Below are positions 627 through 39,344 of a DNA stretch of 64,000 bases, in pieces. The notes under the pieces are model-generated. The model made no database searches and was not told where the DNA came from. It worked only from the letters and a program-made list of their open reading frames with translations. Every line of letters starts with the position of its first letter. Position 1 is the first letter of the stretch. Origin of the DNA: Escherichia phage vB_EcoP_PE007; the sequence record OQ938542.1; one strand, 5' to 3'. Made by a program: the position numbers and the translations under genes.

Positions 627-935
627 ATGACACAGAAATTACGTGTATGGCACATTCCCCAAATGCCAATGAAGGCATTTCATGTAGAAACTGATAGTCT
701 TCAGGAAGCTGTTAAGATTAAGAATGCGTTAGCAGACTATGACCTATTCCAGTATGAGAACAATGTCAAAGGCGATTATGCTAATGCTAACGGTATTGAG
801 ATGTGGGATGAGTCCCTCACTGACCAAGACCTTATTGATAGGGAATTGGAGGACCGTTGGGTAGATTGGTATATTGAAACTGAAGACGATTTCTTTGATG
901 ACCCAGAAGAATATCTGAATTATCTAATCAAGTAA
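627..935 (+). CDS. small acidic hypothetical protein
   Basis: ATG at 627 preceded by aggaga RBS; strongly acidic C-terminus (ETEDDFFDDPEEY). Confidence 0.6.
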   Translation: MTQKLRVWHIPQMPMKAFHVETDSLQEAVKIKNALADYDLFQYENNVKGDYANANGIEMWDESLTDQDLIDRELEDRWVDWYIETEDDFFDDPEEYLNYLIK

Positions 936-25149: not shown

Positions 25150-25320
25150 ATGAACAAATTTACTATTCACTGGCTCAATGGGAAGGTTAGTTCTTTCATG
25201 GGTGGAGAACCCGTTGAAGGAAAGAAAGCATTTCACATTGAATCGGAAGGCTGCAAAATCTTAGTACCATATGCTTGGTATAAAGAGGGTGAAGTAGAAG
25301 CATTAAAAAAGAGTAGTTAA
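25150..25320 (+). CDS. small hypothetical protein
   Basis: ATG 25150 with gagg RBS; last ORF before the ORF-poor locus. Confidence 0.4.
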   Translation: MNKFTIHWLNGKVSSFMGGEPVEGKKAFHIESEGCKILVPYAWYKEGEVEALKKSS

Positions 25321-26267
25321 TATCGTGAAGGGTTCTGTTAGAATCCTTTGAGATAGGAACTCCTATCATAACCTTTCTTATCTTAATCTTTGCCGTATGG
25401 CACTGACGCTAGGGTTGATGCCCATCCGTCAGGTAGACTATTTTAAGAATGGGTTATCACAGAAAATGTAAAGCAACATTCGGGTTAATCAATGGCCTCT
25501 CCCTATAGGGGCCATTTCTGAATCTTAGGCTATATCCCAAAGGTTAGTATCTTTAGGATAAGGCTTCAGATCCCTTATCAACTAACGCTCATGTTGAGCA
25601 CAACATTAACCAATAATGTCGGATAGTTCGTTATACTATTCATCCAGCATTGAGATGTTAGGTCTTACATGTAAACTAAATCATAGGGTAAAGAGGGACT
25701 CGTCATCCCTCCCCTATTATGACATCCTATCAATGAGTACATTAAGCTAACGTGCGGAGGTTTACACTGTAGCCGGTGTAGGTGGAGAAGACGGCAGGGT
25801 AGCTACCTGTGCTTAGTGTACTCTTTGATAGTTTTCGTAAGCGATTATGCGGTTTTTTAGAAATGAACCAATAACATAAATGCAAACGATGATGTTGTTC
25901 TGATGGCGGCGTAATAGCCTGTAAGTCAGCAAGGTCTTCCGACTCCTTGTAAGCAAATTCGGCGCAGTGGCCCGCTGTGATTAATAATGGGCACACAACA
26001 GGTAAGAGCATTTAGGCTACTGAGAAATCATCCGAGGCAATCAGACCTATCTTCTGTTAAGTGCTCTTTCCGTTGTGGTGAATGTGCAGGCTGATGCGCA
26101 GTGGGACGTGGCTGACTCACGAGGATGGCTCAAGCGAATAAGCAAGCTCGACGCCGCCGAATAAGCGCCTTATGCCGGAGATCAGTACCGGCCACCACAA
26201 CAAGTCCAGACGATATCTGAGTGACTATAAAAACAGATGGAGCCAGGTGGAATCCCTGGCAATTAAT

Positions 26268-26334
26268 TCCGGTGTAGGTACTAGCGTTGTGCACAAACGT
26301 GAGTGTTCTGGTTCGAGTCCAGACGCCGGAACCA
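26268..26334 (+). ncRNA. tRNA-like element (degenerate or D-arm-less tRNA with encoded CCA)
   Basis: 7-bp acceptor tccggtg/cgccgga (one GU), T-arm tctgg-TTCGAGT-ccaga, anticodon-like arm gcgtt-gtgcaca-aacgt, discriminator A plus CCA; no D-arm, so only about 64-67 nt. Confidence 0.3.
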
Positions 26335-26405
26335 ATTCAAAGTAGCATTGCACTAATCCATCCCGGAGTTCAAAGGCCAAACATGGAGCAGTGCTACTTT
26401 GAATT
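26334..26405. repeat. long inverted repeat (14 bp perfect, about 18 bp with one mismatch)
   Basis: aattcaaagtagca at 26334-26347 pairs with tgctactttgaatt at 26392-26405; left arm overlaps the CCA end of the tRNA-like element. Confidence 0.6.
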
Positions 26406-26779
26406 AGAAAGATTATGGGGGTAAGTCGTAACCATACGACGGCGTAAGTACCAGATGAGACTTCTGGACGCCCCTACCAGATTTGGGGTGTAACAGTTAA
26501 ATCCAGTTGCCGGAAGTGCTATTCTAGATACGCTGCCAATGTGTGAACGGTAAGGCTGTACAGGACTCGGACTCCCGCCTCAAACCAAAGTCGCCAGGTA
26601 CTTATGGCAAACGGGTAGTAACGAACTAGTCATTCGTCAAACGCCCACCCTATTATGAGTCAGCAAGAACGCCTTCACTTAAACTTAAACAATATAAGCT
26701 TAACGCAATAATTATGTAGGGGTATGTAAGGATTGCGAAGAAGGAGCCAGTTAAAGTCTGGCATGACTCACTCATTTAT

Positions 26780-26853
26780 GCCCACTTAGCTTAGACGGGG
26801 AAAGCAACCGACTAATAATCGGAAGGTCACTGGTTCAAATCCAGTAGTGGGTA
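26780..26853 (+). tRNA. tRNA (hand-folded anticodon AAU; identity uncertain)
   Basis: Acceptor gcccact/agtgggt (7 bp, one GU), D-arm gctt/aagc, anticodon arm accga-ctaataa-tcgga, 5-nt variable loop, T-arm actgg-TTCAAAT-ccagt, discriminator A; 74 nt. Confidence 0.65.
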
Positions 26854-27080
26854 CTTATTAATAGAGAACATAGTCCTGATTGCATTGCACTCTAAAGACA
26901 ATGCCGGTGAGACAGTCCGGCACTCTAATTATTGAAAACATACCTAACGGTGTGAGTATGAGCAGACTATAATGCTCAATTACAGTTAACTATTATCGGA
27001 CTATCAATCCTGTTTGCTGGTACAAGCACCGGTGGTAATAGTTAACTGGCCTAGCCTCGTTAGCTGCGTTAAAGCTACTA

Positions 27081-27105
27081 AGTCCCTCTTCGGAGGGACT
27101 TTTTT
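27081..27105 (+). terminator. rho-independent terminator closing the tRNA/structured-RNA locus
   Basis: agtccctc-ttcg-gagggact followed by T5. Confidence 0.75.
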
Positions 27106-27169
27106 ATTTGAGTATTGATGAACGCAATCATGCTTAAGTACAAATTCAAACCACTCTATGAGGCTAATA

Positions 27170-27550
27170 ATGGCAACAGTAAGTAAAGAAGCAATCGAAG
27201 CTAAGATTAAGAGCATTTACTTTTTCAATGGTGCAGATGCAGTGAAGTCTGCATTCGTTGACCCTTCTGCACTACCGGCAGATGATTTGGCTAACCTGGG
27301 TCTGACAACCCATTGTGTAATCATTCTGGAAAATGGATTTAAAGTTGAAGGTGTATCTGCTTGCGTAGACCCAACTATCTATGATGAGCAGTTAGGTCGC
27401 CAGTATGCATATGAAAATGCATTCAATAAGATTTGGGAATTAGAGGGCTACCTACTACGTCAGGCACTGCATGAGAAGGAAGAGACTGCTAAAGCTTTGG
27501 CTTCCTTTGCAGAAAACAATACCTGTGATGGTGGTGGTTGTACAATTTGA
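27170..27550 (+). CDS. hypothetical protein
   Basis: ATG 27170 with gagg RBS; first gene after terminator 27081-27105. Confidence 0.5.
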   Translation: MATVSKEAIEAKIKSIYFFNGADAVKSAFVDPSALPADDLANLGLTTHCVIILENGFKVEGVSACVDPTIYDEQLGRQYAYENAFNKIWELEGYLLRQALHEKEETAKALASFAENNTCDGGGCTI

Positions 27551-27630
27551 TTCAAAGGTGTATGGTAGTTTTTACCGAAAGGTACTGAACTACCCGACAT
27601 GTGGTAAGGCTCATGAAGCCAAAACAAAAC

Positions 27631-27655
27631 AAGCCCTCCTAGTGAGGGCTTTCTC
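27631..27655 (+). terminator. hairpin terminator/attenuator
   Basis: agccctc-ctagt-gagggct followed by ttctcattt. Confidence 0.45.
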
Positions 27656-27668
27656 ATTTGAGGTAGTT

Positions 27669-28184
27669 ATGTCAGAAGAAATTAAAGTCCATTTCACCAA
27701 CTACATTGGAACCAAGTGTGTAAATGGTTTCCGAATGAACAAAGAAACATACTGCAAACTTCGAGGCTGGGATGTACCAGCAGATGAAGATCCACTAGAA
27801 GAAGGTTACTTAGTCGAGTACCCAGACTCTAAGTCCAACCAACCTCAATTTCGTGGTTATCCTCAGTTCCGTGGCTATATTAGCTGGTCACCTAAAGCTG
27901 CATTTGAAGCTGCATACCATGACGTAGAAAAAGGTTGTACCTTTGGTCATGCAGTAGAGCTTCTCAAATCAGGCTTCAAACTAGCCCGTAAAGGCTGGAA
28001 TGGCAAAGAGATGTATATTTCCTATGTTGACCCAAAAGAGTGGAATAGTAGTGAACTGGAGCGTCCATGGGATGAAGACCTTAAGCCACGCCCGTGGATT
28101 GGTATCAAAACCGTCGATAATGAGTATATGCCTTGGGTTCCATCCCAATCGGATGTATTAGCAGAAGACTGGGTAATTCTATAG
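27669..28184 (+). CDS. protein with possible DUF2829/Tad2-like C-terminal domain
   Basis: ATG 27669 with gagg RBS; C-terminal FGHAVELLKSGFKLARKGWNGKEMYISYV ... PWVPSQSDVLAEDWVIL; assignment is from recalled family motif, not a search. Confidence 0.45.
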   Translation: MSEEIKVHFTNYIGTKCVNGFRMNKETYCKLRGWDVPADEDPLEEGYLVEYPDSKSNQPQFRGYPQFRGYISWSPKAAFEAAYHDVEKGCTFGHAVELLKSGFKLARKGWNGKEMYISYVDPKEWNSSELERPWDEDLKPRPWIGIKTVDNEYMPWVPSQSDVLAEDWVIL

Positions 28185-28519: not shown

Positions 28520-31500
28520 TTAGTTAGTAAGATTGAGCCACGGGTTCAGGGTATGAGCACGTAAGCCTTGACCGAAACCGAAGGAGTAACCAAGATTGCC
28601 CTGTGCAGCAATACTAAAGATGTTGTCCTGAATAGGCAGACCAACGTTACCAAACATGGTAGGGGTTGGAGCCAACATAGCTATAGCAGCATGCACCGGG
28701 TTATTACGAATCATGGACACTGCAACTTTTGCAGAACGAATCTTAAAGTTATAGAACCACATTAAACCAACACTTTCCATATACCCACGGAAGCGACCCG
28801 GTAGACGGTCATAGTTAATAAACTCTTCCGTTACACGTCCTAGTGCTTCTTCACGGGTCTTACCTTTACGCTGAGTCAGTTCATCATAAATGATTGCTTT
28901 AGCGATAAAGTCAGAGTACTCAACCGTCTTCTGGATACCCTGGAACAGAGCAGTATCCTTAGTGATAAGTGCATAACGACCTGCGTTACGTACAGACTTA
29001 GGCAGCTTATCAGCCAGCTTATCCATGTATTCGTGAAGTTTGCCTTCAGTAATAAGGATATCATCACGACCAATACCAGCATCTGCAATTGAGGAGAACT
29101 CACCAGCTTCCAGCAGAGGCCAGATACTCAAACGTTTATGGCTATCAGAGATGGACTGAATCTCAGCCTTAAGTTTACGAATCTGGTTCGGGTTAGTAGC
29201 TGCACGTAATTCTGCTTCTGCATCTACCTGACGCAGACGAGATTTCAGGTACTGGTTAATCTCAGCAGTCTTCTGTGGAATGCTCTTAGCAATGTTCTTA
29301 ACCGGTACACCACGAGCAATCATCTGATAAAGGTTAGCCAGGAAGTTAACAGCAGGTACGACTACTGACTTAACCACAATCAGAGTCTTAGCTTCTTTAA
29401 CTAAGTTCTGAACCAGGTTCTCACCACCCATTACATACTTATAGGCACGGTTGCCAAAGACACCCAGCATAGCTTTCTTGAAGGTATCCAGTGTTTCTGG
29501 TGACCAACGGGAATTACCAGACCAGGCATCACCTACAGAAGCTGCACGATAACCCAGAGCATCGTTGAGCATGTCACGACGTACCCATAATTCACCCGGA
29601 CCAAACAAACTTTCTGCTTTCTGACGGGTTTCACTGTTCATCAGCTTAAGTGCATCGGCAGTTACTGGGTCCAGTTTAGAACCAAGAAGGTTAACGTACT
29701 GGGACTTATTAGAAGCAGACATCTTAATGTCGTTCTCATACATGCTATGCAGGTTCTCAATCAGCATATCATTGAAACGCTGAGCCTTAGCTTCTTCCAC
29801 CTGACGACCACGCCATACACCGATTGCACGAGCAAGATGGTTCTCACCTTCAATGTGCTTCAGCATATTAGGGTCAATGGATTGCTCATAAGCAACCACA
29901 TTACCATTGGCATCATATACAGGCAGCAGTGGTTCATTACCACGTTCACCACGAGCCAGTGCTTTAGTGATACGGTCTACGGAAGGCTTGTCAGTGATAC
30001 GACCAGCTACCATGGTTCCCATAGTAAAGCCCGTACCGAGATCTACACCACCAGCAGTATTACGAACGTTCTGTAAGATACCTTGCGAGAAAGGAGCCTG
30101 TGCCTGTACTGGTGCAAAGTAGTAGCTACGTGCTGGTCCACGATTAGCAGAGCTACCCTGATAAGTACCAAGACGTACATAGGATTTCTCAATCAAATCA
30201 GCAAACTGACTATCTTCAGCAACAATCAGGTTAACACCCTGTTTGTTCTCAGTTGGGATGTATCCTTTGTACTGATTCAGGGTTGCACGAGTATCAGACT
30301 TAGCTTTAGCCATTTCATCTTTACGCTGACCAACCAGGTAAGAAGTAGCAAAGTCCATGCCTTCAATTTCTGTCTGAGCCAGTGAAGATAACATCTCACG
30401 GTCAGTCTTATTCATTGCTTCCAGTGCATACAAAGTAATCAGTTTATCCAACTGAGCTACATCTACAACAGAACGTGTAGTCTTACGTTCACCCAGTAAA
30501 CGAGAAATTGCAGTAGCATTACGTAGCAGGTTGTTACCAACCGTACCATTAATCATGTATTGAGCCAGTTGCTTAGATTTACGATTAATCAGAGGCCAGT
30601 TACGTCCTGCTTGTTTCTGTAAATCTGCTTCCAGTTTATTAACCTCACGGTCAACAATCTTCTGGTCAGTCAGCAGGTCACGGATTTCAGCCAGAGACAT
30701 AGTGTCGCGAAGAACAGCTAAGTCAGTTTTACCCATACCAGTATGCATTGCTTTCCACTCATCGTTAGTCAGCTTACGGCTGAACTTAGATGCGATAGTA
30801 GTAGGCAAATGCTCACGGAACTGCTGACGGTCAGCCTGTACCTGTGCACGTACTGCTTTAATCAAATCATATACAGAAGCATTGCTCTTAGTACGACCAG
30901 TTAAGTCATTAACCAGGTCATGGAAAGGTTGCCATACTTTACCCTGGTTCATTGCAGCCATAACACCTTCAGCTACGATTGCACCATTCTTCTCTGTAGC
31001 AATAGCAGCTATCAATTGTGCAGCATGAGCAGCACCTTTAACCAGTGGGTTCTTGGTATTAGCTGCAACTTCACGAGCACCTTCCAAAGCACGGGTAGAC
31101 AGTACATCAATAGAGTCCACCAGATACTGGTTAGCACGGTCAATAGCATTACCGGTAGGAGTAGCAACGGAATCATAGAAGGACTCTGCATTAAGACTGG
31201 TCTGCATAATTGTCTGAGCCAGTGCATCCATACCTTCCTGTACGTTAGTGGCTTTAGTATCACCTGCTACACGAGCATTCAGGCTAGCCATTGCAGCAGT
31301 ACCGATGTTAGTCAGCATTGCATCAACGGTATTGCCTGATTTCTTATCTGCTTTCATAACAGGAATATCAGCCAGTACCTTACGTACCTCTTCGCTTACC
31401 ATTGCCAGACCAACAAAGGTAGGCAGTAAGGAAGAACGACCTTGTGCATCAAATTCAATGTTGTTAGCACCCATGATGGTATCGAACTTCTGCTGTGCAT

Positions 31501-34500
31501 AGTAACGGTCAGCAGGGTTAGTACTATCCGGGTCAGCCATGAATGATTCGACGGTCAGATTCTTAGTAACATGCGTGTAGTATTCCTGTGCACGAGCCAT
31601 AGCAGCAGGGTTAATAGCAGCCTCGGTAGCCAGTGCAGCAACAATGTTAGTAAAGAGACGCTGTTCCTGCATATTCATGGTGAAGCCATGTGCCTGAACA
31701 TCACGAGTTACTTTAGTTGCATTTACTACTGCATCAGAGAACTTACCTTTACGAATTACTTGCTGTACTGGTTCTGAACCAATGTAGTTAGTAATCAGCT
31801 TATCGAAGGTTTTCCCTAGCTCTTCCAGACGAGTATTGTCACCGTATGCTTTGTTATGGAACAAGGTAGTATCTTTAGCTACAGCAGTAGTAGGGGCCTG
31901 CCCACGCATTACTACAGCAGAGTTAAACAGTAAGCCAGAGAACATATCATCTGCATTAGCAGGAGCTTTCTTACGTCCGAATACCAGACGTTTGATTGCT
32001 TCATATACAGCCTGAACCATAGTTTTAAGTGCAGTGGTTTTCTTCTGCTTACTTATAAGTTCACGGTTGGTTAAACCCCAAGCCATGTACTCATTCAGTG
32101 CAGCAGCTTTAGCCATCGCTGGTTCAATAAAGCCATTAGACAAGTGACCATTAATGGTATTCAGTGCATTAGCATATGCTTCACGTACTGCCGGAGATTC
32201 ATCCTTAACATCCAGAGCACGGAACTGATTCATCAGGTCTTCAATATTCTGTACTGCTTCATTAGGAGTACCTTCATAGTGAGCCAGTACAGATTCAAAA
32301 GTAGAAGCATGTACTAATTCATGAACCAGAGTCTCTAAGGAAGGAGTAACTAAGTAGATGGTTTTATCTTCAAAGTTAGTCCAGCCATATGCATTACCAG
32401 CCTCAGCAGCTTCAATATCTTCTGGTGCTGGGCGAGTAATATTCTTCTCAATAGCGTAGGCATCCAGTTGAGAAGGCGTACCGTAAACAACCTTATAGTC
32501 TTTAGCAGCAAGAGATTTCTGTATTTCTTTCAGTACTGCTTGTTGTTCAGGGGACATCTCTTTAGCCAGTTTAGTAATGGCAGCATTAGACAGCAGACGT
32601 ACACCAGACTTCAGTACACGACCGACCTGTTCCATTGCTGGCACTTCTTTCACTGGTTCTGCTTTAGCAGCACGTACTGCATCACGACGCTTGTTTAATT
32701 CAGCATCAAACAGTTCGTTCAGCTTAGCTACTTGCTGGTCTACAGTCAGACCTTCCAGAGAGATTTTACCGTTGTTCACATAAGGAGCACCAACAGCAGC
32801 CATCTGGTCAACAGTGACTTGTACCTGGTCCATTACCTTGTGGCGAATATCTACACCCAGAGCAATATTACGCAGATTACGTTCAATCTGTTCAGCACCA
32901 ACACGTAACAGGTCATCAGTAGCACCCTCACGTTGGTCGTATTCCAGTGCAGATTTAGCGATAGCTTGTTTGGTTTCATCAGACAGTTTGCTGAAGTCTA
33001 CGTTCTTCATGAACTTAGCAAAGGAGTCATAAACATTCTTGATAGGGTTACCCTGCCAGGAAGTATATACAGCCTCATTAGCTTTACGGCTTGCATCAGT
33101 AATGTCATTAATACCAATGTTCATACCATCAAAGATTTTCAGGGTATTCTTCGGAGCACCTTTCATAGTAGAAAGGGTCTGCATCATCATGCCATCACCT
33201 GTACCGATGGTCATAAATGGAATACCTGCTACACCTGCCTGTGAAGGAGCATAGATGATCATTGGCACACGCATACGGTCATCTAAGTTGGTAGCCAATA
33301 CTTGGTTAGCAACATCAGTATTCTCACTACCAGCAATGTAGAAAGTCTGTGAACCAGTCTCAATCATTGGAGCCAGTGGAGACAATGAAGCCTGGATTTC
33401 ATTCAGTTCTTTCTGTGTTAAGAAATCACCTTTCTTCCATGTTGGGTCTTTTTCTTTTTCTGCCAGCTTAGCCTGTACAGCTTGTTGGAACATATCCTGC
33501 AATACCAGAGATTGAATCTGAGTAGCCTTCTGTAAGTTCTCAGTAGAATACATCAGACCCTCACCAACAGTATTTCGGATACCAGTACGCATTGGTTCAA
33601 CGAACAGATGAAGCATGTTCTCTTGTAAGTTCTTCAGAGCATTACCGGATACAGTAAACTTCTGAGGGTCTAACTTACCAGTCAGAGCACCATCTACCTG
33701 CTGAATAGACAACTCACCTTTACGCATAACCGGAACATTACCAGTTAGTGCTTCCATAGAAGTAAGGAAAGTATCCAGCATAGCCTGAGCATCAGCCTCA
33801 GACGCAGCCTCCTTACCAAACATAGCCATAGCTGGGGAAATGCTAGGGTCAGCAGCACGGGCTTGTAGAACGTCACTGAAGCGTTCGTAGATGGTATCAG
33901 TAATTGCACTAACCATCTTGCCAGCAATACCACGAGCACCAGAACCATAGATGGTAATGGTCAGTGGGTTTTTAGCGATACCACGTTTCAGGTCCAGAGT
34001 ACCATCTTCATTAAGATTGAAGTCTTTAATGAACAGGTCCATTAACTTCTGAAGATGCTTCATCTGGTTCGTAACAGGAACGTTGTTACGGTAAGTATTG
34101 CGTAATTCATTCAGTGCCTGTTGCAGACTATTAGTAGATGCTTCATACAGGTCAACACTGTCATCATGCGAATGATGCTCGTTCATAGTCTTGCCAGCTT
34201 TACCGAAGAACAAGCCACCCTTAGCAGTATTCTTAATCCAGTCTGAAGTGAACTTACCACCAGTCATTAATACCATTGCGTTGATTGGTCCGTTGGTTAC
34301 ACCATCGGCTTCAACGTACAGTGGGGTATTAAAGTTAGCACGGTCATCACTGTTAAGGTAACGGGCATATTCCATAAGAGCCATGAGAGCTACGAATGAT
34401 TTATCATTCCCCAAGGAAGTCTTCAGAATATCCACTGCATTAGCAGGTAAGTGACCAGACTTATCAAACTCAACCATCATATCAACAGCAGGTTTCAGTT

Positions 34501-37500
34501 TACCTTCCAGAGCTTTAGTCAGCTCATCTGACATAACTTCACGGGACATTTTATGAACTTTAATGCCTAATGCCTGAGCCAGTCCAAGCTGGAAGTCAGA
34601 GAACGTTTGACTGTTTTCATTACTTAAGTCGATGGTAGAGAAGGTTGGAAGGATTGCTTCACGAACCAGCTTACTGGATTGTGGGTTGTTCTTACCAAGC
34701 ATCTGCATACGACCTACACGGGTCATGTTGTAGCCGTAGTGAATAGGTGTATCCAGTCCATTCTCCTGTTCCTTAATTTGATTGATTACACCAAACAAAG
34801 AATCATATGCCATGGACACGGACAGGTTCTTACCTTCCAGTGATTTAGCAGTATTCACATTAAGCAACTCTGGGGTAAGAGCACCAGCACCCATTAATTC
34901 CAGAATGTTGTCACGACCCAATGCTTCATAGAAGTTAACCATAGGCATATGTACACGAAACTCAGTAGCTTGTTCTGCTTTGAGAGCAGCTTTCTGTTCC
35001 GGGGTATTATTAACAGCAGGGTTACGTAACTGAGTTTGAGCCACGGAAGGAATGTCATCACCCAGATACAATTTCTCTACTGGTTCTAAAAGGACAGTTT
35101 CCTCAATAGCAGTAGGGAATTTATTAATGGCATCGTTATCATCCAGCTTCTCAATGGTATACAGACCAACAGTCTTATTAGATTCTGGGTCAATCTCAGA
35201 CACATCTAACATGGACTCTTTAACTTCACCCATCTCAATAAGGGAAGACAGAATCTCTGTAGCCATTGCCATTGGGATACCCTTGGTATACCCCAAAGGT
35301 GCATTAGGATTACGATTCAAACCCCAATAGGATTCAATCTTTTGAGCTAGTGAGTTAGTAGCTTCAACCAGGGTCTGAGCATTCTCGAAGTCAGCCAGAA
35401 TACCTTCTGGTAGCAGAGATGCTTCCACACCAGTAATAGCAGCTACGTCTTTCATGTCTTTAACAGCAGCATTCTGTGTAGCAGTCAATCGCCATTGCAG
35501 ACCAGCAAGTACAGCAGTTTCTAATAGCTGGTCATTGAACTTAAAGGTGTCACCATCTTTCTCTACGATGTTAAGTAACTTACCACCTACCCAACGGTTA
35601 GCCTCAGTACCTTCCGCAAAACGTTTACCAACGTTCTTGTTAGCAAGGAACTTAGCCAGACGGTCAGACAGAGTAGTCTTCAGAGTTTCACCAAACTCAA
35701 ATAAGTCCTGGTAACGCTTAATCACATCACTTGTGAGAGCGTTATTTTCTTTTTGAGTAAATGCTTCAAAGCGAGCAGCAGAAGACAGTGCTTTCTTAAC
35801 ATCAGTCAAAGGAGACTCAGAGCCAATGGTACGAGACTTAGGTTCTTCTGGAAGACTAAATGCTTTAAGGAACTGGTTCGGTGTCTTGTCATTGTTGTAG
35901 ACAGGGAACACTGTTTCCATTTGAGATAAAGGTTTACCACCAACGGTATAGTCTGCTTTCAACTGAGCCAGTGATACTTCTTCCTTCTCTACATTATTGG
36001 TATTACGCCCAGACGTATCTACACCAATCTGAATCAGTGCATTGTTTGCTTCTACGAATGATTGAACAGTATTGAATTGTTCAGGAGTCAGCTTCTGATT
36101 ATCAAACAGTTGTAATGATACAAATGGTTGCTCACTTCCTTTGTAGAAAGTGGAGCGTACAGCACCAGTATCCAGAGACATATCACGGTAACCATCATGA
36201 CCAAATACATCAGACAGACTGATATGGTCACCATTGGAACCAACAACAGTACCATCATCAAAGAGCCAAGGACTCTCCTTACGGTCACCATACTTATTAA
36301 GAGTATCCTGTGAAATAGTATTCTCTTTCACATAAGAATCTCTTTCAGATTCAGTAGGCTGTTCAACGGTATCCTGTTTTTCAGATTGGTTCTCAGGTTC
36401 TTTTACAGTCTGTGGTTTAGACTCTTTAATAGTAGGTTCTGTTTTAACAGCTTCACTAACAGAGGGTTTAGTCTGTACAGTAGGGGTAACTGGTTCCTGT
36501 TTTGTAACAGGAGTTTCATCAACCTGATTCACTGGTTCATTGGTCTGTTGGGATTGAGCAGCATCAAGATTGCCCTGACGGAACTCTTTAACTACCTGGG
36601 CGGCAGGCTTGTCCAAACGTGAATCCAATGGGGTAACTTTCACATGAGAAACATTAAGCTCCGGGTAAGCCGTAGCAAGTGCGTTAGCAATATCAGCTAC
36701 GGTCTTGGCTTCCAGTCCTACTTGCTGGGCAAACTTAACAGACTTGGTATCATACGGATTGACACCGAGGCCAGTACGACTACGTACCCATTCACGCGAG
36801 GGAGTAAGAGCCTGATAATGGACAGACTTATTCTTATCCGCATTCCCAGAAATCAAATGCTCATTCAACGCTCCGACCTTATTCTGCATGTGCTGGGCGA
36901 ACTTCATAAAATCGCTCAGATAAGCGGAGGCCAAATCGAAGTTACCAGAGTTATACGCAGAACGAATGCGTTTCGCATGTTGCAACGCAGAGTACTGTCC
37001 TTCATTAGAACGAGACTCATCGGTTTTAATCTGTTTACTAACAATATCTTGAGGACGTAAGCCTAGTTCTTCTGCTTTAGCGTCGAACTCTCGTGCACCC
37101 TGTAATAAGGCAGCAGCAGATTGCAGGGCAGCACGTTGACGATTCCCCAGTGTAATCTTACCTTCACTTGCATGTTTCAGAACCATGTTCACTGAATCTG
37201 CATCCAGCACTTCTGGAGATACATCAGCAGCCATAGCAATGTTGTTTGCTTGGGCTTGGTTAGCTTCTTCAGTAGCTTTCAGTTTACCTGCTTCAGCCTG
37301 TTCCTGAATCATGGAATGGATGGCACGGAATGCACGAAGTACCTTCGGTGTATTCTGAACGTTAGCCATCAGGCCGGAGAATTGGTCTACGATTGCAGCA
37401 GCAGGGGAACCTTGTTCCAGATTAGCCAAAGCACCCGGGTCACGGTTAATGAAGCTATCCATAGACATGATATTGTCATACATCTGGATTGCAGCTTCCA

Positions 37501-39274
37501 TTTGAACGTTAGGGTCTTCGGCAGTATTAACCAAGTCAGCCATCTTCTGAATAGCTTCTACACGGTTAGTGGAACCAGAAACAGCTTCACGGATTGCTGG
37601 GTTAGTTTGTTCCAATTCTACCGGGTCAAACTTCATTGCCTGAGTTAAGTCAGCAGCATACTGGGTAGCAGCAGCTTTCTCTTCTGGAGAAATATCCATT
37701 GCATCCACTGCTTCCTGAACAGTTGCTTGAGCTTGTTCTGCCTGAGCAGTAGCTTCTTGTGCAGCAGCGTTAACCGTAGCATCAGATACGGGGGATGCTT
37801 GTTCATTACGCTTAGCAACTTCTTCCCCACGTTGAACCAGGATGTTAGTAATAGGTGAAGCTACTTTTGCTAGTGCCTTACCAGCCAAAGAAGCACCAGC
37901 CAGGGTAGTACGTACAGCAGGACCAACGGCAGCACCAGCAGCCTTAACAGTTGCACCAGGAGCTTGAGCAACTCCAGCAGAACCGAAGCCATACAATGCA
38001 CCCAGACCAGTTTGTTCACCCACACCTTTAAGCAAATCACGCTCAGCATCTACATTGCCATGAATTGCCTTGTTTTGTGCAAACTGACTTGTACCAGACT
38101 GGATACCTTCTTCTACAGTCTCACGCAGCATGTTAGAACCAGCACCAGCCAGTGAACCTACCTTAAGTGGGTTAAGTTCAAACTTGGATACCAGTGGAGC
38201 AGTAAGAGCAGCAACTGGAGCAGTTAAGCCAGCAGCAGTGATACCTGTTTCAGATGCAGTCTGGCGACGTGCTTCTTCAGGAGACAGACCGTCTTTAATA
38301 TGCTGTTGGTATACAGGAGATTTAGCAGCCAGTTCACTGAATGGCATTTCCATAATTTCATTAGCAGTCTGTTGGTATGCACCACCAGCTTCCATACCAC
38401 CAATTGCTATAGCAGGTGCAGCAACACGACCAGCAGTCTGTGCAATACGTGCAGGACGATAACCTAATTCAGCAGCTAGGGTAATACCCTTAACAGCTTT
38501 ATCACCACCTACCATTACTTTACCAAGTGCAGATACACCACGGATAAGTGGACCACCTGTAAAGAGGGAACCAACACCTTCACTCAGTCCGTCAGAAGCA
38601 GCCATACCATTATCAAGTGTGTTAGCAACAGAATCAAAAGCGTCACGACCAATACGAGACAAGGAGGCAACCAAATCGCTCCCCCCATTTTTGATATCTT
38701 GTTCATAGAGCTTCTGGTTCTTCCGTGCAGAAATCTGGTTCTGATTCTGAACAACTTTACGTGTAGCATTCAGTGCATCAGACTGTAGATTGTGTACACC
38801 CTCATTCAACCAATCCATCCCGGAAGCAATGGTTGCCCCGGCATTATTATTGACCAAACCTGCGCCAAGAGCAGCAATGCCCCCAAGGGTATTAGCAACA
38901 CCAAGACCAACACCAGAAAGAGTATCGCCAAATGCTTCTGCGTTAGTACGTTGTTTAGATAAGTCCTGACGTACAACATCAGCAGCATTAGCTCGGCTAT
39001 TAAGAATCTGTAAACCTTGCTCATTACCGTACTTATTAATGATTTCTAATGGGGAGGCTTGAGTGAAATCTGCCTGAAGTGAACCTGGTTCGAATGCACC
39101 GATTCCAAGATTACCTACTCGTCCAGTCTGGAGATTGTAAGCATTCTCTGGGGTTAATTGGAAAGGGCTTTGCCCTTGTGCAGCTTGCTTCTGAGAGGTT
39201 GCAGTAGAGACATCGACTTGCTTAGCATTAGTGATGCTGTCTGCGAAACCTGCCAGACGGTCAAATGTTGACAT
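28520..39274 (-). CDS. virion-encapsidated RNA polymerase (vRNAP, N4 gp50-like)
   Basis: Single uninterrupted ~3584-aa ORF, a size characteristic of N4-like vRNAP; ATG at 39274 with aggaaa RBS (track start 39292 is TTG). Confidence 0.85.
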   Translation of the reverse strand: MSTFDRLAGFADSITNAKQVDVSTATSQKQAAQGQSPFQLTPENAYNLQTGRVGNLGIGAFEPGSLQADFTQASPLEIINKYGNEQGLQILNSRANAADVVRQDLSKQRTNAEAFGDTLSGVGLGVANTLGGIAALGAGLVNNNAGATIASGMDWLNEGVHNLQSDALNATRKVVQNQNQISARKNQKLYEQDIKNGGSDLVASLSRIGRDAFDSVANTLDNGMAASDGLSEGVGSLFTGGPLIRGVSALGKVMVGGDKAVKGITLAAELGYRPARIAQTAGRVAAPAIAIGGMEAGGAYQQTANEIMEMPFSELAAKSPVYQQHIKDGLSPEEARRQTASETGITAAGLTAPVAALTAPLVSKFELNPLKVGSLAGAGSNMLRETVEEGIQSGTSQFAQNKAIHGNVDAERDLLKGVGEQTGLGALYGFGSAGVAQAPGATVKAAGAAVGPAVRTTLAGASLAGKALAKVASPITNILVQRGEEVAKRNEQASPVSDATVNAAAQEATAQAEQAQATVQEAVDAMDISPEEKAAATQYAADLTQAMKFDPVELEQTNPAIREAVSGSTNRVEAIQKMADLVNTAEDPNVQMEAAIQMYDNIMSMDSFINRDPGALANLEQGSPAAAIVDQFSGLMANVQNTPKVLRAFRAIHSMIQEQAEAGKLKATEEANQAQANNIAMAADVSPEVLDADSVNMVLKHASEGKITLGNRQRAALQSAAALLQGAREFDAKAEELGLRPQDIVSKQIKTDESRSNEGQYSALQHAKRIRSAYNSGNFDLASAYLSDFMKFAQHMQNKVGALNEHLISGNADKNKSVHYQALTPSREWVRSRTGLGVNPYDTKSVKFAQQVGLEAKTVADIANALATAYPELNVSHVKVTPLDSRLDKPAAQVVKEFRQGNLDAAQSQQTNEPVNQVDETPVTKQEPVTPTVQTKPSVSEAVKTEPTIKESKPQTVKEPENQSEKQDTVEQPTESERDSYVKENTISQDTLNKYGDRKESPWLFDDGTVVGSNGDHISLSDVFGHDGYRDMSLDTGAVRSTFYKGSEQPFVSLQLFDNQKLTPEQFNTVQSFVEANNALIQIGVDTSGRNTNNVEKEEVSLAQLKADYTVGGKPLSQMETVFPVYNNDKTPNQFLKAFSLPEEPKSRTIGSESPLTDVKKALSSAARFEAFTQKENNALTSDVIKRYQDLFEFGETLKTTLSDRLAKFLANKNVGKRFAEGTEANRWVGGKLLNIVEKDGDTFKFNDQLLETAVLAGLQWRLTATQNAAVKDMKDVAAITGVEASLLPEGILADFENAQTLVEATNSLAQKIESYWGLNRNPNAPLGYTKGIPMAMATEILSSLIEMGEVKESMLDVSEIDPESNKTVGLYTIEKLDDNDAINKFPTAIEETVLLEPVEKLYLGDDIPSVAQTQLRNPAVNNTPEQKAALKAEQATEFRVHMPMVNFYEALGRDNILELMGAGALTPELLNVNTAKSLEGKNLSVSMAYDSLFGVINQIKEQENGLDTPIHYGYNMTRVGRMQMLGKNNPQSSKLVREAILPTFSTIDLSNENSQTFSDFQLGLAQALGIKVHKMSREVMSDELTKALEGKLKPAVDMMVEFDKSGHLPANAVDILKTSLGNDKSFVALMALMEYARYLNSDDRANFNTPLYVEADGVTNGPINAMVLMTGGKFTSDWIKNTAKGGLFFGKAGKTMNEHHSHDDSVDLYEASTNSLQQALNELRNTYRNNVPVTNQMKHLQKLMDLFIKDFNLNEDGTLDLKRGIAKNPLTITIYGSGARGIAGKMVSAITDTIYERFSDVLQARAADPSISPAMAMFGKEAASEADAQAMLDTFLTSMEALTGNVPVMRKGELSIQQVDGALTGKLDPQKFTVSGNALKNLQENMLHLFVEPMRTGIRNTVGEGLMYSTENLQKATQIQSLVLQDMFQQAVQAKLAEKEKDPTWKKGDFLTQKELNEIQASLSPLAPMIETGSQTFYIAGSENTDVANQVLATNLDDRMRVPMIIYAPSQAGVAGIPFMTIGTGDGMMMQTLSTMKGAPKNTLKIFDGMNIGINDITDASRKANEAVYTSWQGNPIKNVYDSFAKFMKNVDFSKLSDETKQAIAKSALEYDQREGATDDLLRVGAEQIERNLRNIALGVDIRHKVMDQVQVTVDQMAAVGAPYVNNGKISLEGLTVDQQVAKLNELFDAELNKRRDAVRAAKAEPVKEVPAMEQVGRVLKSGVRLLSNAAITKLAKEMSPEQQAVLKEIQKSLAAKDYKVVYGTPSQLDAYAIEKNITRPAPEDIEAAEAGNAYGWTNFEDKTIYLVTPSLETLVHELVHASTFESVLAHYEGTPNEAVQNIEDLMNQFRALDVKDESPAVREAYANALNTINGHLSNGFIEPAMAKAAALNEYMAWGLTNRELISKQKKTTALKTMVQAVYEAIKRLVFGRKKAPANADDMFSGLLFNSAVVMRGQAPTTAVAKDTTLFHNKAYGDNTRLEELGKTFDKLITNYIGSEPVQQVIRKGKFSDAVVNATKVTRDVQAHGFTMNMQEQRLFTNIVAALATEAAINPAAMARAQEYYTHVTKNLTVESFMADPDSTNPADRYYAQQKFDTIMGANNIEFDAQGRSSLLPTFVGLAMVSEEVRKVLADIPVMKADKKSGNTVDAMLTNIGTAAMASLNARVAGDTKATNVQEGMDALAQTIMQTSLNAESFYDSVATPTGNAIDRANQYLVDSIDVLSTRALEGAREVAANTKNPLVKGAAHAAQLIAAIATEKNGAIVAEGVMAAMNQGKVWQPFHDLVNDLTGRTKSNASVYDLIKAVRAQVQADRQQFREHLPTTIASKFSRKLTNDEWKAMHTGMGKTDLAVLRDTMSLAEIRDLLTDQKIVDREVNKLEADLQKQAGRNWPLINRKSKQLAQYMINGTVGNNLLRNATAISRLLGERKTTRSVVDVAQLDKLITLYALEAMNKTDREMLSSLAQTEIEGMDFATSYLVGQRKDEMAKAKSDTRATLNQYKGYIPTENKQGVNLIVAEDSQFADLIEKSYVRLGTYQGSSANRGPARSYYFAPVQAQAPFSQGILQNVRNTAGGVDLGTGFTMGTMVAGRITDKPSVDRITKALARGERGNEPLLPVYDANGNVVAYEQSIDPNMLKHIEGENHLARAIGVWRGRQVEEAKAQRFNDMLIENLHSMYENDIKMSASNKSQYVNLLGSKLDPVTADALKLMNSETRQKAESLFGPGELWVRRDMLNDALGYRAASVGDAWSGNSRWSPETLDTFKKAMLGVFGNRAYKYVMGGENLVQNLVKEAKTLIVVKSVVVPAVNFLANLYQMIARGVPVKNIAKSIPQKTAEINQYLKSRLRQVDAEAELRAATNPNQIRKLKAEIQSISDSHKRLSIWPLLEAGEFSSIADAGIGRDDILITEGKLHEYMDKLADKLPKSVRNAGRYALITKDTALFQGIQKTVEYSDFIAKAIIYDELTQRKGKTREEALGRVTEEFINYDRLPGRFRGYMESVGLMWFYNFKIRSAKVAVSMIRNNPVHAAIAMLAPTPTMFGNVGLPIQDNIFSIAAQGNLGYSFGFGQGLRAHTLNPWLNLTN

Positions 39275-39344
39275 AGCATGTTTCCTGTTCAAACTTATAT
39301 CGTATATAGGTAACTTACTCTACAGTAAGCCAGTTAAAGAAAAA

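Follow-up and report, generated by a model that had tools for sequence, protein, structure and literature searches.

Genomic setting and anatomy of the element

Escherichia phage vB_EcoP_PE007 (sequence record OQ938542.1) is an N4-like coliphage (Schitoviridae, Gamaleyavirus), and the stretch of its DNA analysed here, referred to as the window, comprises 64,000 nucleotides (nt). Our subject is a small element on the plus strand (26268–26334) which resembles a transfer RNA (tRNA) without a D arm. It is contained in a non-coding array of about 1.4–1.8 kb (about 25350–27110) that holds no credible open reading frame (ORF), and the last gene 5' of this array ends at position 25320. In BLAST, the region 25900–27200 was 95–99% identical to the phages nithesis, ECBP1, and Bp4, and an ORF of 3,590 amino acids on the minus strand (28520–39292) occupies the position of the annotated virion RNA polymerase of the relatives. 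When the whole window was scanned with ARAGORN and with the curated thresholds of Rfam, the sole gene found was a tRNA-Ile (AAU) located in the same array (Table 1).

The initial annotation of this DNA had reported a tRNA-like element at these positions with 9 nt in place of the D arm and an encoded CCA, which was borne out by the sequence, the minimum-free-energy (MFE) fold, and the prediction by RNAalifold. The element reads UCCGGUG/UAGGUACUA/GCGUU-GUGCACA-AACGU/GAGUGU/UCUGG-UUCGAGU-CCAGA/CGCCGGA/A/CCA. Compared to a canonical tRNA (Rfam model RF00005), it possesses an acceptor stem of 7 base pairs (bp), A73, the encoded CCA, and a T arm with a 5-bp stem and a 7-nt loop of the type UUCRANY, two stem pairs of which covary among relatives. 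The D arm is replaced by the invariant UAGGUACUA, for which no conserved pairing partner was found in the variant alignment or by RNAalifold. The middle hairpin does not correspond to an anticodon arm either: its loop comprises 7 nt in three variants (the window, KP8, and cp20) and 6 nt in four others (N4, ECBP1, and the loci L097 and L119), with a C at position 37. RNAalifold independently predicted the three helices of the element from seven variants and additionally paired G22 with C27, so that GUGCAC becomes a closing pair around the tetraloop UGCA and the seventh base bulges out. An extra helix UACU/AGUG of the MFE fold was rejected, being absent from the KP8, L097, and cp20 variants.

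Distribution and selection on the fold

The initial annotation had suggested a comparison with related phages, and the element indeed proved to be conserved among them. BLAST with the segment 26200–26345 returned 106 phage records, 61 of them matching at least 80% of the query, and all of these records represent enterobacterial N4-like phages, with phage N4 itself among them. The element is present with a length of 66–68 nt in N4, KP8-like, G7C-like, and cp20-like Schitoviridae, and the same search placed it among the best-conserved parts of the non-coding region in three or more genera. It is 90–100% conserved across genera whose flanking sequences are no longer alignable. In N4 (EF056009), it lies at 32870–32935 (L108, 1867–1932), in a stretch of 1.5 kb that is left without annotation between gp47 and gp48, while exactly these 67 nt are labelled 'tRNA-OTHER' in the KP8 record, and the records of AL25 and Jura carry the label 'tRNA-Undet'. 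A diverged copy was found in the Klebsiella phage cp20 (Efbeekayvirus), reading UCCGGCG UAGGUACUA ACCCU-GUGCACA-AGGGU ACAGCAU CCUGG-UUCGAGU-CCAGG CACCGGA ACCA. This copy is located directly between the genes for tRNA-Tyr and tRNA-Ser and shows the same CCA-AAU spacing as six real tRNAs of this phage. In phage PBM-3, another CCA-ended RNA begins only 2 nt past the CCA of the element. Pattern scans of IMG/VR viral contigs, 185,579 bacterial and archaeal species genomes, and metagenomes yielded only the N4-like copies and chance matches. The element is not carried by any E. coli genome: among 5,426 genomes, none had a copy covering at least 80% of the query. We regard it as a new family of tRNA mimics of narrow distribution, D-armless and non-decoding, which belongs to N4-like phages.

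For the pair statistics, we aligned the seven distinct variants including that of cp20 and made a separate count without the latter. Standard pairs make up 99.2% of the pair cells of the seven variants, and both partners are exchanged in five pairs, of which three belong to the hairpin and two to the T stem. At most one of 500 column shuffles reached the observed values, and slid controls gave 23–47% pairing. The sole non-standard cell is C6.A67 of cp20, an isosteric replacement of the U6.G67 found elsewhere; every stem substitution is either pair-keeping or isosteric. Among the single-stranded parts, UAGGUACUA, GUGCAC, UUCGAGU, and ACCA are invariant, and close relatives differ by one base in the length of the hairpin cap and of the linker. 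Scored with a covariance model made from the seven variants, the window copy reached 95.5 bits and 16 family members 86–97 bits; across 935 kb of phage loci, no real tRNA exceeded 31 bits. The conservation and the pair-keeping changes thus indicate a selected structured RNA instead of a decaying pseudogene; by these data, the element forms an RNA family of its own, whose fold is maintained by purifying selection.

Flanking words and the tRNA-Ile gene

The initial annotation had interpreted the element as the degraded copy of a duplicated tRNA module, with the tRNA-Ile at 26780 as the other copy. The absence of a D arm and the failure of tRNA finders to recognise the element are consistent with such a pseudogene, as are its likeness to a tRNA-Asn and the presence of the words GGAGCCAG and GCATTGCACT near both genes. 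These words do occur as reported (GGAGCCAG at 26239 and 26743, GCATTGCACT at 26345 and 26882), but they failed as signs of a duplication. They are out of register, because GGAGCCAG starts 29 nt before the element vs. 37 nt before the tRNA-Ile, and GCATTGCACT lies 11 nt past the CCA of the element vs. 28 nt past the tRNA end. The 1.9-kb region contains three exactly repeated 10-mers and two 11-mers, compared to about 1.7 and 0.4 expected (N^2/2/4^k), which places exact repeats of this size at chance level, and the 10-mer identity of the flanking words is not preserved in PBM-3, N4, or KP8. Over the whole window, GGAGCCAG is present in eight copies (1032, 2540, 11918, 19950, 26239, 26743, 33369, and 39496) vs. 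1.4 expected from shuffles, and the six copies outside the RNA array are found in unrelated contexts. Each of the two copies within the array opens a small hairpin 5' of its gene (GCCAGG/CCUGGC and GCCAG/CUGGC), and at the second site (26743) this hairpin covaries in relatives although GGAGCCAG itself changes.

Aligning the two modules, as had also been suggested, revealed only a generic similarity of the T arms: a global alignment gave 12 identities between the element and the tRNA-Ile, but 51 of 67 in a gapped alignment with E. coli tRNA-Asn. The tRNA-Ile was also absent from the hits of the element's covariance model at E values up to 10. By these comparisons, it is not a paralogue of the element. 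With flanks that can no longer be aligned around a conserved core, only pair-keeping changes in the stems, and no specific similarity to the supposed sister copy, we consider a decaying pseudogene scarcely credible. Because its best resemblance is to tRNA-Asn, the element may plausibly be derived from a tRNA which was remodelled and kept, and the alternative offered in the initial annotation, namely a non-tRNA role of this copy, fits the evidence.

The tRNA-Ile gene itself shows some peculiarities. An A at position 34 is unusual, the gene is annotated as tRNA-Xle in some records, and it lacks an encoded CCA, unlike the element and all tRNAs of N4 and cp20.

Tests for decoding, coding, and host-derived functions

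The tRNA model RF00005 did not hit the element at E values up to 10 for the window copy and up to 1 for those of N4, KP8, and cp20, and no Rfam family overlapped it in the window at E values up to 10. ARAGORN did not call it with default settings. In the mitochondrial mode (-mt), the N4 variant was called as a 'D-loop mtRNA' with a 2-nt 'anticodon' and the cp20 variant with an odd loop, and the window copy remained uncalled. A true decoding tRNA without a D arm as in animal mitochondria, e.g. a tRNA-Cys (GCA), would agree with the 7-nt loops GUGCACA of the window, KP8, and cp20, which place a U at position 33 and GCA at positions 34–36. Some variants are indeed called by ARAGORN once its thresholds are lowered or the mitochondrial mode is used, and a few GenBank records label the element tRNA-OTHER or tRNA-Undet. 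Yet the relaxed ARAGORN call in the window is based on a different, shifted acceptor stem, the loop is closed to a tetraloop by RNAalifold, and position 37 is occupied by C. With a middle loop of either 6 or 7 nt, the element is unlikely to decode. The discriminator is an A, whereas the cysteinyl-tRNA synthetase (CysRS) of E. coli requires U73. Together with the missing Rfam hit, these features make a decoding tRNA highly improbable.

Small ORFs overlap the element on both strands, but the one-base indels in the cap and linker of close relatives break any reading frame and exclude a protein-coding function. An origin as a host tRNA fragment or a phage attachment site (attP) was rejected as well, because the best match in E. 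coli was a non-significant one to tRNA-Asn (35 nt, 83%, E = 9).

The tmRNA-like tag RNA upstream of the element

A relaxed Rfam scan detected a match to tmRNA_permuted (31 bits, E = 4e-4) just upstream of the leader of the element, indicating a transfer-messenger RNA (tmRNA)-like tag RNA. Its tag ORF (AUAAAU-GCA AAC GAU GAU GUU GUU CUG AUG GCG GCG UAA) encodes the peptide ANDDVVLMAA, a textbook tmRNA-type tag. An A-rich leader precedes AUAAAU, and the stop codon is contained in a hairpin followed by two pseudoknots. This region was found in 538 phage records from unrelated groups, including N4-like phages, T1-like Klebsiella phages, Ackermannviridae, FelixO1-like phages (inside the tRNA cluster), and the lambdoid phage HK633, in which it is flanked by the late terminator and the holin gene. 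The tag consists of 10 codons plus stop in 107 of 107 loci, with variation mostly in third positions (GCG, GCT, GCA, GCC) and peptide variants such as ANEEMYLAVA and ANDNVFLAVA. The stop-codon hairpin and both downstream pseudoknots covary in 57 non-redundant sequences. Short forms of the tag RNA end with ...GGGCA-ACCA or ...CGGGGA-ACCA, and long forms, as in the window, with a hairpin and CACCA (about 26172–26198). No tRNA-like domain was found in it: ARAGORN made a single, spurious call among the 107 loci, and the highest score with Rfam, 44.6 bits vs. a threshold of 47, came from a locus with a tRNA-Gly directly upstream. Our literature search found no paper describing this RNA.

The element itself might be viewed as a tmRNA-type tRNA-like domain which binds SmpB and either blocks host trans-translation or serves as the tRNA-like half of the tag RNA, 70 nt upstream of the leader. 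Its layout matches: besides the acceptor stem, it has a GG-bearing, stemless D loop, a helix substituting for the anticodon arm, and a T arm followed by ACCA, although this is a likeness in shape only. Moreover, 13 loci contain a 10-codon tag RNA 240–400 nt upstream of the element, and the tmRNA of phage DS6A likewise consists of a tRNA-like domain only (PMC4131195, PMC11915505). On the other hand, the wobble pair G3.U70, which confers alanine identity, is absent; position 3:70 is an invariant C-G in seven of seven variants, and the sole wobble in the acceptor stem is at 6:67. None of the tmRNA covariance models gave a hit overlapping 26268–26334 at E values up to 10, nor did ARAGORN make any tmRNA call, even with relaxed settings (-m -ps80). 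The element occurs without the tag RNA in N4, the cp20 type, and the loci L123, L225, and L255, and the tag RNA occurs without the element in hundreds of phages. A split tmRNA kept in one complex through base pairing was rejected because the duplex energies were no better than those of shuffles (z = -0.65 and +1.0). The independent occurrence and the lack of complementarity above shuffles speak against a physical partnership, and we regard a tmRNA-type domain as improbable.

The 11-mer CCGGTGTAGGT is present at both 25773 and 26269, and because the upstream copy lies 110 nt before the tmRNA-like resume codon, it had suggested a one-piece tmRNA of 560 nt with long-range acceptor pairing. This was likewise rejected: the upstream copy represents the 3' arm of a local hairpin in a variable insert, the locus L041 contains the insert with this arm but no element, and a single exact repeat of 11 nt within 1.9 kb is close to the chance expectation. 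We give very little credence to the related idea that the element belongs to a set of phage tools mimicking the translation machinery, in which it acts as the tRNA-like-domain decoy or partner of the tag RNA, which lacks such a domain, and diverts or replaces host trans-translation during infection. If true, the phage would encode a tmRNA system which is split into two RNAs and has a new topology.

Modules flanking the element and other RNAs of the array

The element is preceded by a conserved structured leader (Table 1), whose 3' hairpin (26242–26260) is begun by the first GGAGCCAG. This hairpin covaries among relatives (FH3, SopranoGao, and 9NA) in the forms GCCAGG/CCUGGC, GCCGG/CCGGC, and GUAGG/CCUAC. 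Because the element occurs alone in cp20 and the leader alone in 9NA, SopranoGao, and FH3, the leader is an independent module; it matched no Rfam family. Structured leaders of about 60 nt (AGUCCAGACGAUAUCUGAGUGACU...GCCAGG-UGGAAUC-CCUGGC) with covarying stems are conserved among unrelated phage families and are followed by varied RNAs.

On the 3' side, the CCA runs into a long inverted repeat, as the initial annotation had stated: its last A is the first base of the arm 26334–26351, which is 94% complementary to the second arm of 18 nt at 26388–26405. Relatives keep a hairpin AAUUC...GAAUU 3' of the element, with varying arms and an exchanged insert, which in N4 is itself a T-loop three-way junction. 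The hairpin is possibly a processing site, and the AU-rich spacer after the CCA would be a cleavage site by analogy to the known 3' maturation of E. coli tRNAs. The motif ACCA-AU(U) is a recurring boundary between RNA modules of such arrays, and the true tRNAs of N4 and cp20 are punctuated alike; in the form ACCAAUU, it delimits modules which are exchanged between phages.

These boundaries also bear on the view that the element is only a processing signal, i.e. that its fold recruits RNase P and 3' enzymes to cut a long transcript and the 67-mer itself is functionless. Such cuts would free the leader or tag RNA on the upstream side and the hairpin on the downstream side. The recurrence of ACCA-AU(U) between swappable modules agrees with such a function, and the slot after the leader alternatively holds RNAs of 125–190 nt with an acceptor stem, T arm, and ACCA. 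Cutting signals resembling tRNAs are an established principle, as known from mitochondrial tRNA punctuation and from MALAT1/mascRNA. However, a minihelix of acceptor and T arm would suffice for this purpose, yet UAGGUACUA and GUGCAC are invariant and the stub covaries. In addition, the element of cp20 is flanked by two true tRNAs which need no added signal. We therefore judge a mere processing signal to be unlikely.

Several relatives carry the non-canonical RNAs of 125–190 nt beside or instead of the element. Each of these RNAs has A-CCA, a T arm, and an acceptor stem of 7 bp (U1-A72), which covaries in the 125-nt form (UAUCAGU/ACUGAUA vs. UACUGGU/ACCAGUA). The models for tRNA and tmRNA and those of Rfam recognised none of them. 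Long stems whose arms resemble each other (..AAGAGCA../..UGCUCUU..) and which enclose swappable inserts recur at 25726–25836, 26003–26080, and 26334–26405, as well as in N4 (L108, 1936–2050). One recurring insert (N4 and the loci L016, L042, L056, and L057) itself forms a three-way junction that has a T loop but neither a D arm nor free ends. Two further blocks of the plus strand, 26480–26600 and 26865–26930, are strongly conserved with N4 (L108, about 2220–2330 and 2440–2500) and include a covarying hairpin, GCCGG-UGAGACAGU-CCGGC here vs. AUUGG-UGAGACAGU-CCAAU in N4; they are probably further unannotated RNAs. The word CCCTATTATGA is exactly repeated at 25712–25722 and 26648–26658 on the plus strand, with CCYTATTATGA at the equivalent sites of relatives, and these copies with their -10-like TATTAT may mark promoters inside the array. 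Downstream of the array, two plus-strand ORFs (27158–27550 and 27471–28184) code for a protein of the N4 gp49/Sf6 gp66 family and a protein with a Tad2-like (Thoeris anti-defence 2) domain, suggesting that the RNA array borders an anti-defence or accessory region.

Table 1. Features of the tRNA-like element and of the surrounding RNA array
Feature	Position	Strand	Basis or remarks
tRNA-like element (mature RNA predicted to be 67 nt long)	26268–26334	+	Sequence, MFE fold, RNAalifold, pair counts, covariance model
Acceptor stem, 7 bp with U6.G67	26268–26274 (5' strand), 26324–26330 (3' strand)	+	Sequence, fold
D-replacement linker UAGGUACUA, 9 nt	26275–26283	+	Sequence
Hairpin, 5-bp stem GCGUU/AACGU, cap GUGCACA	26284–26300	+	Sequence, fold
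Linker GAGUGU	26301–26306	+	Sequence
T arm, 5-bp stem, canonical T loop (UCUGG-UUCGAGU-CCAGA)	26307–26323	+	Sequence, fold
Discriminator A73	26331	+	Sequence
Encoded CCA	26332–26334	+	Sequence
AU-rich spacer AUUC after CCA	26335–26338	+	Relatives
Long hairpin from the A of CCA, variable insert between arms	26334–26405	+	Inverted repeat, fold, relatives
Conserved structured leader, AGUCCAGACGAUAUCUG...GGA-GCCAGG-UGGAAUC-CCUGGC-AAUUAAU	26203–26267	+	BLAST with 26200–26345, relatives, fold
Leader copies without the element	L126 (9NA) about 701–760; L125 (SopranoGao) about 701–765; L124 (FH3) about 701–768		
tmRNA-like tag RNA without recognisable tRNA-like domain; tag ORF 25882–25914	25726–26200	+	Relaxed Rfam scan, relatives
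CCA-ended RNAs of 125–190 nt	L002 (PBM-3) 1633–1757; L109 (KP8) about 1296–1424; L081; L021; L124 (FH3) about 768–905		
True tRNA-Ile, anticodon AAU, same array	26780–26854	+	ARAGORN; Rfam tRNA 64.8 bits
Intrinsic terminator, closes the non-coding array	27080–27111	+	9-bp stem, then TTTTTTATTT

Proposed processing and role

The comparative data establish that the gene is conserved and that its fold is selected, and they speak strongly against a decoder and against a pseudogene. With a confidence somewhat better than even, we go one step further and propose that the element is a working gene for a non-decoding tRNA mimic of about 67 nt. It is treated like a tRNA gene, as apparent from its position between tRNA-Tyr and tRNA-Ser in cp20, its spacing in PBM-3, and the plus-strand terminator. 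The element would be transcribed from the plus strand together with the phage tRNA and non-coding RNA array and excised like a tRNA: RNase P would cut at U26268, an endonuclease in the AU-rich spacer past the CCA, and exonucleases would trim the 3' end to CCA. We infer this route because placement and punctuation match those of the neighbouring tRNAs.

The retained half of the molecule is the one which processing and acceptor-end enzymes read: the 7-bp acceptor stem is stacked on the 5-bp T stem, and the canonical T loop, the discriminator A73, and the CCA are all present. Only UAGGUACUA is left of the D arm, with a GG that might still be able to dock onto the T loop, and the anticodon arm is shrunk to a short stub with a GUGCAC cap. 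The most likely job of such an RNA would be to occupy or titrate a factor recognising the acceptor/T-arm/CCA end of tRNAs. Which factor this might be is a matter of speculation; a decoy function against a tRNA-directed defence system is a reasonable alternative target because the locus adjoins the gene with the Tad2-like anti-defence domain.

Several points weigh against the proposed mimic. The existence of a stable 67-nt RNA is itself deduced from the DNA sequence, and a purely cis-acting role as a cutting signal is possible. The MFE fold yields the same helices but with a z-score of only -1.72, and 15 of 200 shuffles fold equally well. The element is thus not singled out by thermodynamics, and its support comes from the comparison with relatives. 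There, just seven to eight variants exist with a mean column identity of 90%, so that the covariation is based on few independent events. Acceptor pairs 1–5 never vary and are uninformative either way. Moreover, no known identity set for aminoacylation is evident, because G3.U70 is absent and A73 coincides with a GCA-like loop in some variants only, and we found no paper on the element, the N4 non-coding RNAs, or the tag peptides.

Phage N4 has served as a model system for decades, yet the gp47-gp48 gap containing the element is unannotated in its record. A mimic pared down under selection to the core of acceptor stem, T arm, and elbow would show which half of a tRNA matters to the phage, and would provide a clean probe for a host enzyme or a tRNA-directed defence system reading this half. 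Annotators should be aware that the calls of 'tRNA-OTHER' or 'tRNA-Undet' in Schitoviridae represent a distinct RNA family and not noise. The surrounding array adds a little-explored set of modular structured RNAs which are swapped between unrelated phages, namely the tag RNA, the CCA-ended RNAs, and the T-loop junctions in long stems.

Comparison with known systems

A parallel is provided by the stable RNAs C and D (also called species 1 and 2) of phage T4, small non-tRNA RNAs encoded in the T4 tRNA cluster. They are co-transcribed and processed with the tRNAs, and their function has been obscure for decades. Like them, the element would be a small stable non-tRNA RNA from the tRNA array of a lytic coliphage, but the T4 RNAs are about 120–140 nt long and do not form a miniature cloverleaf. 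Metazoan mitochondrial tRNA-Ser(AGY) shares with the element a short loop in place of the D arm next to an intact acceptor stem and T arm. However, these tRNAs are real decoders with 7-nt anticodon loops, whereas the element of a bacterial virus carries a loop of 6 or 7 nt which is probably closed to a tetraloop.

Mycobacteriophage DS6A encodes a tmRNA reduced to the tRNA-like domain, and such 'no CDS' (coding sequence) tmRNAs have a length of about 65 nt (PMC4131195, PMC11915505). As in the element, a phage RNA of this size combines an acceptor stem, an unpaired substitute of the D loop, a short helix, a T arm, and ACCA without any coding or decoding part. The element differs from it by lacking G3.U70 and any similarity to tmRNA ends, and it is not recognised by tmRNA models. 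The tRNA-Other of Bacillus cereus (PMC3399842) and mascRNA are further examples of tRNA-shaped RNAs which are made by the tRNA processing machinery and do not act in translation, but they keep the full cloverleaf and are unrelated to the element in sequence and context.

Among true tRNAs, E. coli tRNA-Asn shares with the element the pairs U1-A72, C2-G71, C3-G70, and G7-C66, the bases UAG at positions 8–10, an identical T loop (UUCGAGU), and four of five T-stem pairs. Relative to this tRNA, the element has a collapsed D arm, a substitute for the anticodon arm, and A instead of G as its discriminator.

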